A stretch of DNA of 64,000 nt from Candidatus Omnitrophota bacterium (GTDB lineage: Bacteria; Omnitrophota; Gorgyraeia; Gygaellales; Profunditerraquicolaceae), in NCBI GenBank assembly GCA_028715415.1, contig JAQURX010000006.1, positions 8,505-72,504 of the forward strand, read 5' to 3'. The notes under the pieces are model-generated. The model saw only the letters and a list, made by a program, of their open reading frames with translations, ran no database searches and had not been told where the DNA came from. The first letter of the stretch is position 1; each line of letters starts with the position of its first letter. A program made the translations under genes and the position numbers. This document shows positions 5,277 to 55,981 of this stretch, piece after piece.

Positions 5277-7169
5277 ATGTCTTTAATCAGTATCCAAGAA
5301 GCTACTCTTAGATTCAGCGGCCCGCTTATTTTTGATCATTTGAATCTGCAGCTAGAGCCCGGGGAGCGTATTGCCTTGCTTGGCCGAAACGGCGCAGGCA
5401 AGACTACGCTTATGAAAATAATGACTGGCCAGCTTGAGCTTGATAGCGGGAAAATAATTTTTCAAAAAGGCATTCAGGTTACGCATCTGCCGCAGGAAGT
5501 CCCGGTTGATATGGAAGGAAGTGTTTTTGATATCGTCCTTTCTGGTTTGGGTGCTCGCGCCAATTTATTAAGCCAGTACCATCATGTTACCCATCGTCTT
5601 CATAGGGAACACACTCCGGAATTATTAAAACAACTTGACGATCTCCAGGCAGAGTTGGACCATACCAATAGTTGGGATGTTAACAATCAGGTTGAGAATG
5701 TTATTGGCAAGATGAAACTTGACGGGGATATGGATTTTAAGAGCCTTTCCGGAGGACAAAAACGCAGGGTGTTTTTAGCCCGGGCTCTTGTTTTAAGGCC
5801 TGAAGTTTTGCTCCTTGACGAACCCACCAATCATTTAGATATTGATTCAATTAATTGGCTGGAGGGATTTCTTTCCAGCTATCCGGGAACAATTTTCTTT
5901 GTTACCCATGACCGGTTATTTATGACGCACTTAGCAACAAGGATTGTTGAGCTTGACCGTGGAAGGATTTTTAGCTGGGCATGCGATTATAATACTTTTC
6001 TTGAGCGCAAACAAGCGGCATTGGATATTGAAGAATCAGAGTGGAATCATTTTGATAAAAAATTAGCCGAGGAAGAGATTTGGATTCGTAAAGGAGTTAA
6101 GGCCAGAAGGTGCCGTAATGAAGGCAGGGTTAAGGCTCTGGAACGCTTAAGAGAATTAAAGAAAACTCAGCGTAAGCAGGAAGGCCTTGTGCGTATGCGC
6201 GCACAAAAGTCAGTTCTTTCCGGACACCGGGTGATTAAAGCAGTTCAACTTAATTTTGCTTATGATGATAAGTGTTTGATTAGGGATTTTTCTACCCGGA
6301 TCATGCGGCAGGATAAAATCGGAGTGATTGGCCCTAATGGCAGCGGCAAAACTACACTGCTGCGGATTTTACTTGGGAAGCTTAGCCCCCAAAGAGGAAA
6401 AGTTGTTTTGGGGACAAATCTAGAAATTGCTTATTATGACCAGCTGCGCGAGCAGTTGGATGAAGATAAGACGGTTGCCGAGAATATAAACGGAGAGAGT
6501 GAAACTATAATCATTAACGGCAAACCTAGGCATATCTTGGGATATTTACAGGATTTCCTTTTTGCTCCTGACCGCGCGCGTACGCAGATAAAGGTGCTCT
6601 CTGGAGGGGAACGCAACCGTTTATTTCTTGCAAAGTTATTTTCCAAGCCTTCTAACGTGCTGGTAATGGATGAGCCTACTAATGATTTGGATATTGAGAC
6701 TTTAGAACTTCTGGAAGAATTGCTTCTTGATTATCCCGGAACGCTGCTTTTAGTCAGCCACGACAGGGCATTTCTAAATAACGTGGTAACTTCAACGATT
6801 GTTTTAGAAGGAGAAGGTGTCATTAAGGAATATCCCGGAGGCTATGATGATTGGTTGAATCAGCGGCAGCCAATAGCAAAGCCTACGCCTGTAAAAAATA
6901 AAATCAAGAAAGAACCTGTAATAAAAGCAAAACCTATTGTTCCGCGAAAGCTTAATTTTAAAGAGCAGCAGGAATTAGATAAACTCCCTTTAATGATTGA
7001 GCAGTTGGAAGAGGAACAAAAAACGCTCTACAATTTATTTGAAGATATTTCTTTTTACCAGCGCCCTCCTGAGGAAATCAGCCAAACCAAAGCCAGGTCC
7101 GAATCTCTGTCTGAGCAGCTTCAAGCAGCATATGACCGGTGGGATTATTTGGCAGAATTGGCAGAGTGA
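5277..7169 (+). CDS. ABC-F family ATPase (Uup/EttA-like, two ABC domains plus C-terminal coiled coil)
   Basis: 630 aa. Two Walker A motifs (GRNGAGKTT, GPNGSGKTT) and two LSGG signatures, with no TM segments. C-terminal charged coiled coil as in Uup. Confidence 0.85.
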   Translation: MSLISIQEATLRFSGPLIFDHLNLQLEPGERIALLGRNGAGKTTLMKIMTGQLELDSGKIIFQKGIQVTHLPQEVPVDMEGSVFDIVLSGLGARANLLSQYHHVTHRLHREHTPELLKQLDDLQAELDHTNSWDVNNQVENVIGKMKLDGDMDFKSLSGGQKRRVFLARALVLRPEVLLLDEPTNHLDIDSINWLEGFLSSYPGTIFFVTHDRLFMTHLATRIVELDRGRIFSWACDYNTFLERKQAALDIEESEWNHFDKKLAEEEIWIRKGVKARRCRNEGRVKALERLRELKKTQRKQEGLVRMRAQKSVLSGHRVIKAVQLNFAYDDKCLIRDFSTRIMRQDKIGVIGPNGSGKTTLLRILLGKLSPQRGKVVLGTNLEIAYYDQLREQLDEDKTVAENINGESETIIINGKPRHILGYLQDFLFAPDRARTQIKVLSGGERNRLFLAKLFSKPSNVLVMDEPTNDLDIETLELLEELLLDYPGTLLLVSHDRAFLNNVVTSTIVLEGEGVIKEYPGGYDDWLNQRQPIAKPTPVKNKIKKEPVIKAKPIVPRKLNFKEQQELDKLPLMIEQLEEEQKTLYNLFEDISFYQRPPEEISQTKARSESLSEQLQAAYDRWDYLAELAE

Positions 7170-7466: not shown

Positions 7467-7625
7467 ATGGGGTATCAAGGTGGTGGTTTCGGCGGACCAA
7501 GAGAAATGCACAAGGCAGTTTGCTCGGAATGTAAAAAAGAGTGCGAAGTTCCATTTAAGCCTAGAGAAGACCGTCCGATATATTGCAAGGATTGTTATTC
7601 AAAACGTAAAAACGAAGGTCGTTAA
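7467..7625 (+). CDS. Small zinc-ribbon protein (52 aa, CxxC-x17-CxxC, Gly-rich N-terminus)
   Basis: Strong RBS AAAGGAGG. MGYQGGGFGGPREMHKAVCSECKKECEVPFKPREDRPIYCKDCYSKRKNEGR. Followed by a clean terminator. Confidence 0.5.
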   Translation: MGYQGGGFGGPREMHKAVCSECKKECEVPFKPREDRPIYCKDCYSKRKNEGR

Positions 7626-7701: not shown

Positions 7702-7738
7702 AGGGCTCGGCATTGTCAGTGCCGAGCCCTATTTTTTC
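7702..7738 (+). terminator. Rho-independent terminator
   Basis: AGGGCTCGGCA-ttgtca-GTGCCGAGCCCT followed by ATTTTTT. Confidence 0.7.
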
Positions 7739-7755: not shown

Positions 7756-7908
7756 ATGAATAGCTGTATGAGATGTGGTGTAAAAATGTCACATAATTAT
7801 TTGGAAGCAATATTAACGATTATAAATGATAAAATGACAAGAATGATAGTATGTGCAAAATGTAAAGAAATCTTAAGTAAAGAAACAAAGAAAGTTCTTG
7901 CCGTTTAA
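7756..7908 (+). CDS. Small Cys-containing protein (50 aa, CxxC...CxxC), hypothetical
   Basis: RBS AAAGGGGG. MNSCMRCGVKMSHNYLEAILTIINDKMTRMIVCAKCKEILSKETKKVLAV. Confidence 0.4.
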   Translation: MNSCMRCGVKMSHNYLEAILTIINDKMTRMIVCAKCKEILSKETKKVLAV

Positions 7909-7957
7909 TTTTTTTAAGAAGGTTATGGATAGTAAGTAAGGAGGACAGGAGATTAAG

Positions 7958-8593
7958 ATGAATATTTTCGTAGGTAATTTGTCGTTTGACGCCAATGAGA
8001 GTGATGTAAAGAACCTTTTTCAAGGATTTGGGAATGTTGTTTCTGTGACAATCGTGATGGAGAGAGAGAAAAAAGCGCCCAAGTCAAGAGGGTTCGGTTT
8101 TGTGGAGATGCCTGATGAACAGCAGGCGCTTTCCGCGATTACTGCTCTTAACGATAAGGAATTTATGGGGCGTGTTCTTGTTGTGAATCCTTCGCGTCCT
8201 AAAACTAAAGCTCAAGCTGCAAGCAGTTTAAGAGGCAACAGGCAGCCGAAGATTGCAGTTGAAGAAAGAGGACAGAAAAAAAACCGGTTTAATTCAGTCT
8301 TAAACAAACCCGGTACATTCAGGGGCGGCAGGCGCACGAATAGTTATATGAAACGGCAAGGTTTAGTTGGAATTCAGGAAGAAGCTAAGCCATGGCGAAG
8401 TAATCGTCAGGAAAATCCAATGCGCTGGCGTAAAAGAAGAGATCAGCCAAAACCTTGGCAGAAGAGTGCGGGTGAGAGTAAGCCTTGGAAGAAAACTGAG
8501 GGAGAAGCGCGGCCATGGAAGAAAGCAGGCGGTGAGCATTCGCAAAAACCACGGTTTAAAGGACGAAGTAAGCCGGGCGGCTATAAACGATGA
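7958..8593 (+). CDS. RNA-binding protein with N-terminal RRM domain and long basic KPW-repeat tail
   Basis: RNP2 IFVGNL and RNP1 RGFGFVEM motifs. Residues after about 90 are Arg/Lys-rich with four (A/S/P)(K/R)PW(R/Q/K)K repeats. AAGGAGG RBS. Confidence 0.85.
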   Translation: MNIFVGNLSFDANESDVKNLFQGFGNVVSVTIVMEREKKAPKSRGFGFVEMPDEQQALSAITALNDKEFMGRVLVVNPSRPKTKAQAASSLRGNRQPKIAVEERGQKKNRFNSVLNKPGTFRGGRRTNSYMKRQGLVGIQEEAKPWRSNRQENPMRWRKRRDQPKPWQKSAGESKPWKKTEGEARPWKKAGGEHSQKPRFKGRSKPGGYKR

Positions 8594-8838
8594 GATTGAA
8601 ATTGAATGTGTATCCGGTAATTCCGGATATGGAGGAAAAACTCGCAGAGATTATTCAGAAAGCAGTGGATAGCCGCGCAAGGATTGTTGAGATTGCTTAC
8701 GGAGAAGCTGCTGAGAGCATTAAAAAGCGCATTTTGGTTTTTCTGAATAAAAAAGAAATCCGCAAGCTTTATTCTCGTTATGAAAAAACAGATAAGGGCT
8801 GGGGAAGGATTTACGTGCATTTCCGCTGGCAAGATTAA
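8590..8838 (+). CDS. Hypothetical 82-aa protein, possibly a degenerate Smr-like domain
   Basis: ATGA overlap with the RRM gene stop and 3 nt before arfB, so translationally coupled. Resembles the Smr pattern (..RIVEIAYGEA.. for ..RVxIIHGKG..) but lacks the LDLHG and HGxG catalytic residues. The similarity is recalled from memory, not a search. Confidence 0.45.
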   Translation: MRLKLNVYPVIPDMEEKLAEIIQKAVDSRARIVEIAYGEAAESIKKRILVFLNKKEIRKLYSRYEKTDKGWGRIYVHFRWQD

Positions 8839-8841
8839 TTT

Positions 8842-9249
8842 ATGGTTGGATTAGATAAAGAAAAATCACTACAAGGCATTATGGCGCGCTTGGGCGTGCG
8901 TGAGGATGATATTGTAGAAAGATTTGTCCGTGCGCAAGGGCCGGGTGGGCAGAATGTGAATAAAGTCTCTACTTGTGTGCAGCTAATCCATCTTCCTACG
9001 GGCATTGAAGTTAAGTGCCAGGAAGAGCGTTCTCAGGCTCAAAACCGTTATCGTGCCCGGCAGATTCTATTAAAGAAAATTGAGAATTTGATCTTAGGAA
9101 AGCTTTCTGAAGAACAAAAACGCATTGAAAAAATTCGCCGGCAGAAAAGAAGAAGGTCGCGCAGGGCGAAATTAAAGATATTGGAATCAAAACGCCTTCA
9201 TGGCGCAAAGAAAATTTTAAGGGCCCGTGTGCGGGAAACCGGGGAATAA
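8842..9249 (+). CDS. arfB: Ribosome-rescue peptidyl-tRNA hydrolase ArfB (YaeJ)
   Basis: 135 aa with a [15 protein letters not shown]-loop. The C-terminal [11 protein letters not shown] basic tail is typical of ArfB. Confidence 0.85.
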
Positions 9250-9322
9250 AATAAGTAGTTACTCAGCTTAGTGCAGTTTCCGCTGAAGCTATAGTAATAA
9301 ATATTCATAAAGAGGAAAAATA

Positions 9323-9447
9323 TTGATATTATATATAAAATGATATAATAATAAAAACGCAACAGAGGAGATAGTTATGAGTTGCGGAATAAAGAATAAT
9401 TTTAAGGGGCAGATTAAGAGCTAAGTATATCTGCCTCTTATTTTTTT
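9323..9447 (+). promoter_or_regulatory. Promoter (TTGATA ... TGaTATAAT), 15-codon uORF (9377-9424, MSCGIKNNFKGQIKS) and hairpin+U9, an attenuator-like leader
   Basis: Extended -10 at 9341-9349. GAGGAG RBS 6 nt before the uORF ATG. The uORF stop lies in the hairpin loop (GGGCAGAT/ATCTGCCT), which is followed by TTATTTTTTT and then the AGGAGG RBS of the main gene. Confidence 0.4.
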
Positions 9448-9463
9448 AATAGGAGGAACTATT

Positions 9464-10738
9464 TTGAGAAAAGAAAGGATTAATGGTGTTGTCAAAGTAA
9501 AAGAAAAGGTAAACTTTATAAACAAAGTTTCATCTTTTACTGTTCTTGGCGATCCCGGATGTGATGGGCTTGGTGTAGAGATAATGACTACTTTTGCAAA
9601 AGCAATGAGTTGTACGCATACAGATTTTAAGATTATTTTGGGTGATCTTGTCCCATTTGGGCTGGAAGAGTTTTATAAACACATTTACGGAATTATAAAT
9701 AATGTATCTCCAAATCGTGTCTATACTTTATGCGGCAATCATGATACTGATTATTACGTAACATATTTTGGCCTGAAGAATTATATATTGGTAAACGATG
9801 ACTTATTGGTTGTTGTTCTGGATAATTCAAAAAGATTTTTTGAAGCCGAAACTCTCGATTTCCTTGATGAATCTTTAAAAGGCTATAAGCGTAAAAATAT
9901 ACTGATATTATTCCATATCCCTCCTCCGAACAATTTCTCTACCAATAGCATGAAGGTTGAAGAATGGCGGAAGTTAAAACCGATTTTGGATCCCTACAAA
10001 AATAATATCAGGTATATACTCGCAGGGCATGTTCATTCTTTTTTTGAGGATAATTTAGATGGTTATAAGATAATCGTATCAGCCGGAGGCGGGGCAAGGC
10101 TGGAATTTTTTGGCCGTTTACCAGATAAGAATAGTTCATTTCATCATGTATTAAGGTTCTACTTTGATAAGAATTCCAGGTTGCAATATGAATACATGTC
10201 GCTAGCAGATGTATCATATGGCCGCGAGATCAAAAACAAGAAAATTGAAAAATATCTTGATGAGGCTTTTCGAAACGAAGCAATGGCACATATCCGTTAT
10301 CAATTTTTTGCAGATGATGCGCATGAAAAGGGTTTTATCGGGATAGAAAAACTTTTTTTGGCATTATCCAAGTCGGCTTTTTTTCATGCGAAGAATTATT
10401 TTAGTATTCTAAATAATCTGCAGGGTATTGGGCATAATCTTAAATTGAGCCGGAAGATTGAAAAAGCAGATACAGCTGAGCTTCTTTTAAAATATCTACC
10501 GTATTCTATCAAAGCAAATTTGCCTTTAGCCCGGTATGCGTTCGGCGAGGCATATGGTGCAAAAAATAACTATTCCGGATTATTGCCGGAAGCAATTAAA
10601 GCTTATAGTAAAGGAGAAGATATAGGCCAATATGGCTATTATGTATGCACATCTTGTGGCAATACGGGACGGCTTGAGGGTGAACTGGAGCATTGTCCTA
10701 TATGCGGCGCTCCTTTAGACAAGATTATCAGAATGTAA
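9464..10738 (+). CDS. Fusion protein: calcineurin-like metallophosphoesterase + degenerate rubrerythrin-like four-helix domain + rubredoxin-like zinc ribbon
   Basis: TTG start 7 nt after AGGAGG. MPE motifs GDPGCDG, GDLVPFG, GNHD and GHVHSF. Then EAMAHIRYQFFADDAHEKGF (compare [23 protein letters not shown] in the genuine rubrerythrin at 36805), but several diiron ligands are substituted. C-terminal YYVCTSCG ... CPICG. Confidence 0.7.
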   Translation: MRKERINGVVKVKEKVNFINKVSSFTVLGDPGCDGLGVEIMTTFAKAMSCTHTDFKIILGDLVPFGLEEFYKHIYGIINNVSPNRVYTLCGNHDTDYYVTYFGLKNYILVNDDLLVVVLDNSKRFFEAETLDFLDESLKGYKRKNILILFHIPPPNNFSTNSMKVEEWRKLKPILDPYKNNIRYILAGHVHSFFEDNLDGYKIIVSAGGGARLEFFGRLPDKNSSFHHVLRFYFDKNSRLQYEYMSLADVSYGREIKNKKIEKYLDEAFRNEAMAHIRYQFFADDAHEKGFIGIEKLFLALSKSAFFHAKNYFSILNNLQGIGHNLKLSRKIEKADTAELLLKYLPYSIKANLPLARYAFGEAYGAKNNYSGLLPEAIKAYSKGEDIGQYGYYVCTSCGNTGRLEGELEHCPICGAPLDKIIRM

Positions 10739-48545: not shown

Positions 48546-48593
48546 GAAATGCAGATTAGGAATTATAATTTGATTTCTACCGTTAAATAAACA

Positions 48594-48622
48594 TTGACAA
48601 GTTTTTCTTAAGCTGATAAAGT
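48594..48622 (+). promoter_or_regulatory. sigma70-type promoter (TTGACA, 17 nt spacer, TAAAGT) driving the riboswitch/btu-cob operon
   Basis: Sequence match only. Confidence 0.4.
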
Positions 48623-48635
48623 AGCAATTGACAAC

Positions 48636-48896
48636 TTGAGATTATAGGACAAGGGAAATCAGTAAATGCTGATGCGGTCCCGCCGCTGTAACCTAAGTAC
48701 TTTTTGAAAGAAAAGTAAACTTTTGGCAAGAGATAAAGCCACTGTCAAAAAATTTGATGGGAAGGTAAGCCAAAAGTGTTTAGGAAGCCAGAAGACCTGC
48801 CTATAAAAAAGTAACTCCTCGTGGAAAGGGCTAAGAATAATATTAGGGTGAAGCCTTTGATGACAAATTTAGTCGTCAGAGGCTTTCTTTTTTAAG
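48636..48896 (+). promoter_or_regulatory. Cobalamin (AdoCbl) riboswitch with terminator expression platform
   Basis: AAGGGAA, GCGGTCCCGCCGCTGTAA, GCCACTG, GGGAAGG and the B12 box AGCCAGAAGACCTGCC all present in the canonical order. GAAGCCTTTGATGAC ... GTCGTCAGAGGCTTT hairpin plus T6 at 48849-48896. Confidence 0.9.
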
Positions 48897-55831: not shown

Positions 55832-55981
55832 CTTTTTTTGAGAAGAAAAGCCGGATAGATGAAGGAAGTCTTGGTGTAAGCCCAAGCGCTGTCGCGCAAC
55901 GGTAAATCTCTTTTAGGGATAAGCCCGGTCGATCATCTATCATAAGGAAAGTACTCTCGCATGAAGAGAAAGGATTTAAGA

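Follow-up and report, generated by a model that had tools for sequence, protein, structure and literature searches.

The window considered here, a stretch of 64,000 nucleotides (nt) from a Candidatus Omnitrophota bacterium (GCA_028715415.1, contig JAQURX010000006.1, positions 8,505 to 72,504), carries three closely spaced open reading frames (ORFs) on the plus strand, at 7958–8593 (211 amino acids, aa), 8590–8838 (82 aa), and 8842–9249 (135 aa). Gene 1 encodes a protein with an RNA recognition motif (RRM), the 82-aa ORF encodes a degenerate Smr-like protein, termed Smr* here (gene and protein alike), and gene 3 encodes a small factor with a GGQ motif. A preliminary description of this DNA took the three genes to be a translationally coupled operon for ribosome rescue, and the junctions it gave are exact to the nucleotide. 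The RRM stop codon and the Smr* start codon share an ATGA overlap (8590–8593, plus strand), and a TTT spacer of 3 nt (8839–8841, plus strand) separates the Smr* stop codon TAA (8836–8838) from the ATG of the GGQ gene (8842).

Among the three genes, only the RRM gene has a strong Shine-Dalgarno sequence (AAGGAGG, 7938–7944, plus strand), which lies 13 nt 5′ of its start codon; none is visible in the TTT spacer ahead of the GGQ gene. Farther upstream, a terminator-like hairpin (7702–7730, plus strand) with a stem of 13 base pairs, 8 of them G-C, and a T-run ends the preceding CxxC-x17-CxxC gene, and it is likely to mark the 5′ boundary of the transcription unit. Because a strong Shine-Dalgarno sequence is found on gene 1 only and a terminator hairpin stands upstream, it is plausible that the three genes are co-transcribed and that their translation is coupled in the manner of reinitiation. 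No clear intrinsic terminator can be seen in the sequence directly after the GGQ stop codon. The AT-rich spacer 3′ of this gene (9360–9445) is accompanied by promoter-like hexamers at 9304–9352 and by a terminator-like hairpin at 9434–9456, directly before the next gene. Rfam and tRNA scans returned nothing in or near 7958–9249, and a PADLOC search of five proteins for defense systems gave no match. Antisense ORFs within the region, such as one of 83 aa on the minus strand (8581–8832), were rejected as genes, the substitution pattern fitting the plus-strand frame.

An Smr Domain Without Its Catalytic Motifs

Smr* (8590–8838, plus strand) is a stand-alone domain of 82 aa with an isoelectric point (pI) of 9.7. 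Its match to the Pfam Smr family (PF01713) is borderline, at 28.0 bits against a gathering score of 25.7, and spans profile positions 11–77 only, leaving the DLHG start of the profile uncovered. Smr was nevertheless matched by 20 of the 20 Smr* family members tested (E ≤ 0.01), and the fold, beta-alpha-beta-alpha-beta-beta, is that of an Smr domain. Searching the sequences of the Protein Data Bank (PDB) with either the single protein or the family profile gave no Smr match; beyond those searches, the tie to Smr runs through the fold comparison and through a bridging family. This family, the nearest outgroup to Smr*, has an Smr core of approximately 84 aa (called ORFs of 84–171 aa; MKLKLDLHDIYNRG...IIPGKGSGQLKK) and matches the Pfam profile over its full length at 48–55 bits. 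Smr* is 40–45% identical to those approximately 84-aa proteins that keep the DLH and GKGSG motifs, and hhalign joins the two with a probability of 99.65% (E = 4e-25). An exhaustive profile search with the Smr* family yielded 255 representatives. The relationship to Smr that had been proposed for this ORF is therefore upheld, as is the loss of the catalytic D and H residues, replaced here by N6-V7-Y8.

Compared with its motif-keeping relatives, Smr* has the substitutions D6 to N, L7 to V, and H8 to Y, and the three residues that follow the motif are deleted. The GxG region has likewise changed, from P-G-K-G-S-G to Y-G-E-A-A-E (Y37-G38 onward). Among 159 unique sequences of the clade, position 8 is Tyr in 85% and Phe in 15% and is never His, while N6 (97%), E34 (100%), Y37 (100%), and G38 (99%) are close to invariant. 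In the clade alignment, the loop equivalent to GxG is variable and follows the pattern E/T/P-A-A/G/S-E/D. Smr* accordingly has neither the DxH nor the (H)GxG motif that characterizes active Smr nucleases such as SmrB, Cue2, and NONU-1. It also begins at the first beta-strand (residues 2–6), with no counterpart of the N-terminal extension and uS2 hook of the SmrB type. Outside the Omnitrophota clade, several members of the small stand-alone Smr family (P0222, P0223, P0244, P0251, and P0270) have independently lost DxH, GKGSG, or both, so that loss of catalysis recurs in this family.

Despite its small size, the 82-aa ORF is a real gene. The ratio of nonsynonymous to synonymous substitution rates (dN/dS) against 12 relatives is 0.03–0.12, with synonymous sites near saturation, and across 80 species-level loci the protein retains 59–91% identity, compared with roughly 36–62% for the adjoining RRM protein. 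Since position 8 is never His, N6, Y37, and G38 are near-invariant, and both dN/dS and identity speak of strong constraint, the former active-site face has been rebuilt and then held fixed, which looks more like a new function than like relaxed drift. A Candidatus Omnitrophica assembly in the public records encodes an identical 82-aa protein, and the label it bears there, “DNA mismatch repair protein MutS,” is misleading.

The RRM Protein

The product of gene 1 (7958–8593, plus strand) is, as previously described, an RRM RNA-binding protein. Its 211 aa match Pfam RRM_1 (PF00076, E = 1.1e-18) over residues 3–74, and the domain, which occupies residues 1–82, carries RNP2 (IFVGNL) and RNP1 (RGFGFVEM) motifs that can be read from the sequence. 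Against the NCBIfam model Rbp_regulator it scores 94.8 bits, below the cut-off of 100. The protein as a whole has a pI of 10.9 and its basic tail of 126 residues a pI of 11.6. An AlphaFold2 (AF2) model, of low confidence here, leaves the tail unstructured. In an alignment of 16 homologues, it nonetheless has the conserved motifs PGT(F/Y)(R/K)GGRRTxSY and (E/D)NPMRWRK and a C-terminal KPGGYKR, together with (K/R)PW repeats of variable copy number. No tandem repeats were found in the tail at the DNA level, the KPW repeats being present in the protein sequence only. Short conserved motifs within a tail that appears to be unstructured point to specific binding sites and make these segments candidate docking sites. 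A total of 1136 RRM homologues were recovered, and all of those with a named source come from Omnitrophota, as does an identical RRM protein already on record.

Conservation of the Gene Pair

The neighborhood of Smr* was compared in one genome per GTDB species, which gave 80 loci. All of those with a record naming the phylum belong to Omnitrophota; “uncultured Planctomycetales” is the title of 17 records, and one is called “bacterium” and nothing more. The gene directly upstream of Smr* is the RRM gene at 61 of the 80 loci, and at two more a contig end leaves only the KPW tail in view. In a further three, the upstream gene is undeterminable at a contig end, and at the remaining 14 it is unrelated, with a gene resembling the EIIA component of the phosphotransferase system and a phosphorylase among the examples. 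Smr* is thus not always encoded together with the RRM gene. Of the 61 linked pairs, 42 are joined by an ATGA overlap and another eight are separated by at most 20 nt. This constant partnership with the RRM gene was missed by the preliminary description.

Downstream of Smr* the picture is far less uniform. A glucan phosphorylase gene is found at 39 of the 80 loci, a DEAD-box helicase gene at seven, the GGQ gene at five, and an RmlD-like gene at two, these last being the two closest relatives (L002 and L003, with 91% and 85% identity in Smr*); 26 loci have another gene or none, and one is undeterminable at a contig end. The phosphorylase, a glycogen-metabolism enzyme of roughly 669 aa and of the carbohydrate (glucan) type (e.g., L014:4255–6261 and 38 other loci), is packed against Smr* as tightly as the GGQ gene is, often with gaps of 1–9 nt or a 10-nt overlap, so that tight spacing in these genomes is no evidence of shared function. 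Upstream of the RRM gene, no conserved gene was found at 53 loci, where glycosyltransferases, ABC/MacB proteins, acyltransferases, and many products with no Pfam match were encountered. An apparent RRM-Smr fusion at L078 (a 318-aa ORF) was rejected as an artifact of a run of 100 N bases.

The order RRM-Smr*-GGQ, with junctions of -1 to +7 nt, is found at L009, L010, L019, L021, and L078, while at L081 the GGQ gene instead precedes the RRM gene at a distance of about 440 nt. These six loci with two gene orders fall in at least two separate places of a rough neighbor-joining tree, which is built on about 165 residues and is poorly resolved. The separation in the tree and the gene order at L081 together suggest that GGQ adjacency is either ancient and many times lost or a recurrent juxtaposition. 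In the reverse comparison, none of 80 metagenomic loci with a GGQ homologue (36–77% identity) had an RRM or Smr-like gene within 4 kb. Because the pair is kept at 61 of 80 loci, the GGQ gene follows it at only 5 of 80, and none of the 80 GGQ-homologue loci has the pair, the evolutionarily stable unit is the RRM gene with Smr*, and the GGQ gene is a variable, occasional neighbor. Of the proposed three-gene rescue module, the domains and the tight junctions hold, while the operon logic is not conserved: the arrangement is not a general feature of relatives, and although the 82-aa ORF is an Smr relative, it is for the most part not found next to an arfB-like gene elsewhere.

The GGQ Factor

Gene 3 (8842–9249, plus strand) encodes a predicted GGQ peptidyl-tRNA hydrolase of 135 aa (Pfam RF-1, PF00472, E = 1.9e-26) with the GGQ motif at residues 35–37, a basic C-terminal tail (residues 85–135, pI 11.9), and no codon-recognition domains. 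It had been identified as ArfB, and as a stand-alone GGQ factor the identification stands. It reaches only 59.4 bits against the NCBIfam ArfB equivalog model (NF006718, cut-off 100), though, and aligns with ArfB structures in the PDB only over residues 19–48 (E about 1e-5; 1.6e-5). The best of 51 PDB matches is human C12orf65/mtRF-R (7a5h_C), over residues 15–119 with E = 2.6e-20. Alignments to RF1, RF2, and C12orf65 run to about residues 104–119, whereas those to ArfB stop at residue 48. Such a stop fits a protein that would lack the alpha-i insert, a helical insert between the last two beta-strands in ArfB class 1 (PMC6514570). The “classical ArfB” clade of Burroughs and Aravind (2019), which includes C12orf65, is without this insert of ArfB class 1/ICT1 (PMC6514570). 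Judged by its alignments, gene 3 is of the C12orf65/mtRF-R or “classical ArfB” type and not of the E. coli ArfB type.

This assignment bears on function. mtRF-R shows no release activity in vitro on non-stop 70S or 55S complexes, and it acts together with the RNA-binding, S4-like protein MTRES1 where peptidyl-tRNA is retained on split mitochondrial large subunits (PMC8786322). Because of the kinship with C12orf65/mtRF-R, it is unsafe to assume that gene 3 rescues non-stop ribosomes, as had been proposed. No S4 domain was found among the six neighboring genes scanned, and such a partner need not be adjacent. ABC-F proteins were also considered as conserved partners of GGQ genes and were rejected: the match is plausible only at L089, and the other 11 matches, with 24–30% identity and a single ATPase domain, are probably generic ABC ATPases.

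Other Genes in the Window and in Relatives

Between the terminator-like hairpin and the RRM gene lies a 50-aa ORF of the CxxC...CxxC type (7756–7908, plus strand), which has only weak matches to zinc ribbons and may be the first gene of the unit. Homologues with 51–73% identity were found by tblastn near the pair in about eight or nine relatives (L004, L005, L009, L011, L012, L016, L076, and L078). On the other side of the hairpin, positions 7467–7625 encode a 52-aa CxxC-x17-CxxC zinc-finger protein (PF23477, E = 3e-19; TIGR04272). Its homologues occur near the RRM-Smr* pair in about 10 relatives, and at L025 a longer version with basic tails replaces the RRM gene directly upstream of Smr*. 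Farther upstream (5277–7169) is a gene for an ABC-F protein of 630 aa that is 75% identical to a neighbor of the pair at L002, in which two ABC_tran domains, ABC_tran_Xtn, and ABC_tran_CTD make up the architecture of an ABC-F translation factor. At L002 and L003, the ABC-F gene is the divergent neighbor of the RRM gene.

The gene that follows the GGQ gene (9464–10738) encodes 424 aa in which a calcineurin-like metallophosphoesterase, a rubrerythrin/ferritin-like domain, and a C-terminal rubredoxin-like zinc ribbon form an unusual combination. Two cobalamin riboswitches lie on the plus strand elsewhere in the window, at 48593–48818 and 55836–55980 (RF00174, 65.6 bits; RF01482, 53.2 bits).

A Possible Two-Subunit Factor

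The reading favored here, to which we assign a probability of roughly 45%, is that the RRM protein and Smr* form a two-subunit, non-cutting RNA- or ribosome-binding factor specific to Omnitrophota. The two proteins would be made together, probably by coupled translation across the ATGA overlap. Smr* would contribute an Smr-type docking surface, with the former active-site face rebuilt around the invariant aromatics Y/F8 and Y37, and the RRM domain with its long, basic, Trp-containing tail would provide RNA affinity in trans. The pair would then be a split equivalent of accessory elements that are fused elsewhere, namely the N-terminal hook of SmrB and the KOW domain of KOW-SMR and MutS2. Reading the pair as a split Smr design draws on the fact that Smr proteins elsewhere carry accessory binding elements and that dead Smr domains still bind ribosomes. 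Across life, Smr domains have repeatedly been fused to RNA-binding domains (bioRxiv 10.1101/2021.08.16.456513), and non-catalytic Smr domains that bind collided ribosomes are known from MutS2 and from SmrA, which is without the nuclease residues (PMC10897456). The factor would most likely act on mRNA in translation or on stalled ribosomes, with a task of sensing or recruitment and not of cleavage. The recurrence of neighbors linked to RNA and translation, with a DEAD-box helicase at seven loci, the GGQ gene at six, and ABC-F in the window, is consistent with such a role. In the window and a few relatives, the C12orf65-like GGQ hydrolase would be co-expressed with the pair and may act downstream of it, although not as an obligate partner. 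A physical complex of the two proteins, its association with ribosomes, and a link to peptide release are what we infer from these data.

Several observations weigh against this proposal. At 14 loci an unrelated gene precedes Smr*, and the commonest downstream gene, the glucan phosphorylase, has no evident link to translation. A single-sequence AF2 prediction with the RRM protein and Smr* placed end to end gave a predicted local distance difference test score (pLDDT) of 44 and is uninformative on the interface. No RRM-Smr fusion was present among the matches listed, which covered 150 of the 255 representatives, 120 of 282 close homologues, and 120 of the 1136 RRM homologues. Finally, B. subtilis MutS2 needs its DLR and HGxG residues for high-affinity ribosome binding (PMC10897456), and because Smr* replaces both motifs of this type, the canonical mode of docking on collided ribosomes may be lost.

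That loss also lends weight to a serious rival, in which RRM-Smr* works on free RNA and not on ribosomes, as a general chaperone or a post-transcriptional regulator, and would resemble the small RRM proteins of cyanobacteria and Bacteroidota, with Smr* only as an RNA-binding subunit similar to Alba or to the C-terminal domain of IF3 (IF3-C). Small RRM proteins of bacteria are cold-induced or global RNA binders. The fold class of Smr* is common to Alba and IF3-C, both proteins of the pair are basic (pI 9.7 and 10.9), and their neighbors include the DEAD-box helicase and, in about 10 loci, the CxxC-x17-CxxC zinc protein. Yet the Smr proteins that have been shown to act on RNA in bacteria or the cytoplasm (SmrB, MutS2, Cue2, and NONU-1) do so at collided ribosomes (PMC10897456; 10.1101/2021.08.16.456513). 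The very high conservation of Smr* along its whole length would suggest a fixed macromolecular partner, and GGQ and ABC-F genes are found among the neighbors. On balance we regard this alternative as unlikely, if still deserving of attention.

The original proposal, a dedicated rescue module in which collided or stalled ribosomes are recognized by Smr* and passed on to the co-translated release factor with the RRM protein as third component, appears improbable. The tight joining of the three genes in the window, the five relatives with the same order, the upstream GGQ gene at L081, and the scatter of GGQ-bearing loci over at least two places of the tree are all in keeping with it, as is the fact that mtRF-R, the closest solved relative of the GGQ factor, acts on split large subunits jointly with an RNA-binding protein (PMC8786322). 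Set against these are the small number of loci with a downstream GGQ gene, the RmlD-like gene that takes its place in the closest relatives, the failure of any GGQ-homologue locus to include Smr* or the RRM gene, and the 39 Smr*-phosphorylase junctions that are just as tight.

It is also improbable that Smr* is still an endonuclease, one that cuts through non-canonical residues (e.g., N6, Y8, E34, or E39) and is targeted by the RRM protein. The replacement residues are indeed highly conserved, most completely Y37 and E34, and nuclease activity is known for PPR-SMR and other proteins in which Smr is fused to an RNA-binding domain (PMC10897456; 10.1101/2021.08.16.456513). However, Phe is allowed at position 8 in 15% of the clade, so that a hydroxyl is dispensable there, which argues against a substitute catalytic role for this residue. 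The GxG loop, which has been implicated in RNA binding and cleavage, has given way to a variable one, and the His of DxH is described as necessary for metal-independent catalysis, its loss accompanying the loss of cleavage in MutS2 (PMC10897456). The possibility that the two genes are mere neighbors in compact genomes and that Smr* has an unrelated role, as the generally close packing, the equally tight phosphorylase gene, and the 14 loci with no RRM gene upstream might suggest, can be largely set aside, given that 61 of 80 species keep the two genes adjacent even as the genes on either side of the pair change and that the ATGA overlap is kept in 42 of them despite RRM tails that vary in length from 133 to 452 aa.

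Relation to Known Systems

The closest parallels to Smr* are uncharacterized stand-alone “Smr/MutS family proteins” of 84 aa from Actinobacteria (e.g., P0365 of Jatrophihabitans sp. DSM 45814), which likewise consist of an Smr domain only. They share with Smr* the N-terminal MKLKL, the C-terminal GR..VHFRW, and a basic pI of 9.7, but in contrast to Smr*, their DLH and GKGSG motifs are intact, and DLH is followed by three additional residues. These proteins are about 90% identical across several families. In the one genome inspected for this (L083), the coupled upstream partner is a P-loop kinase-like gene and not an RRM gene: at L083:4345–5255 (CM132445.1), the Smr gene shares 4 nt with the gene in front of it, which encodes 219 aa and has a weak match to PRK (P-loop kinase). 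Two further proteins, P0142 and P0169, have N-terminal regions that seem kinase-like, as judged by sequence only. The arrangement of a kinase-like part and Smr at L083 and in P0142 and P0169 is reminiscent of eukaryotic N4BP2/NONU-1, in which a P-loop kinase is combined with Smr.

Among characterized proteins, E. coli SmrB, a collision-activated mRNA endonuclease, and its paralogue SmrA/YdaL differ from Smr*, which has neither an N-terminal extension with a uS2 hook nor DxH and GxG, and whose RNA-binding accessory, the RRM protein, is encoded separately. MutS2 of B. subtilis and T. thermophilus is an 87-kDa protein in which an ABC ATPase and a KOW domain are joined to an Smr domain that keeps HGxG, whereas Smr* stands alone, with no ribosome-splitting ATPase. 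The KOW-SMR proteins of Bacteroidota and the PPR-SMR proteins of plants follow the same logic as the pair, an Smr domain combined with an RNA- or ribosome-binding module. They are single-chain fusions, however, and KOW-SMR proteins keep DxH, while here each part has a gene of its own, translationally coupled to the other, and the Smr domain is nuclease-dead.

Gene 3 resembles E. coli ArfB (YaeJ) in having a stand-alone GGQ domain, a basic C-terminal tail, and no codon-recognition domains, but it falls below the ArfB cut-off and its alignment to ArfB structures is confined to a short segment. Of the solved structures, human C12orf65/mtRF-R comes closest, its alignment extending over the GGQ domain as well as the basic tail. 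While mtRF-R is paired with the S4-like MTRES1 on split mitochondrial large subunits, gene 3 has no adjoining S4-domain gene and encodes a putative bacterial hydrolase.

Implications

Three Smr architectures have been described in bacteria, SmrB-like, MutS2, and KOW-SMR (PMC10897456), and RRM-Smr* is not among them; a literature search found no description of an RRM-Smr gene pair. Saito et al. (preprint, 10.1101/2021.08.16.456513) reported Smr domains to be under-represented in actinobacteria and in the Planctomycetes-Verrucomicrobia-Chlamydiae (PVC) group. Smr* is the smallest such nuclease-dead Smr case found, an 82-aa pseudo-nuclease under strong selection across an uncultivated phylum, and the result corrects the mismatch-repair annotation that the gene carries in public records. 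The pair is clean, conserved, uncharacterized, and relevant to an active field, and what is proposed for its function is entirely what we infer.

A more specific version of the proposal, which must be considered a long shot, gives RRM-Smr* one of two tasks: it would sense stalled or collided ribosomes without cutting, or it would attend split 50S subunits as an escort or anti-association factor. In some Omnitrophota it would be wired directly to an mtRF-R-like hydrolase. If true, it would represent a bacterial branch of release-factor-based ribosome quality control, equivalent to mitochondrial mtRF-R-MTRES1 and with the RRM protein as the RNA-binding partner.

From bacteria to humans, ribosome collisions are sensed by conserved Smr domains. 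If the RRM-Smr* pair does bind to ribosomes, it would be a minimal system in which the sensing of collisions is separated from cleavage, and if it does not, the Smr fold would have been reused in Omnitrophota as a general RNA-binding subunit.

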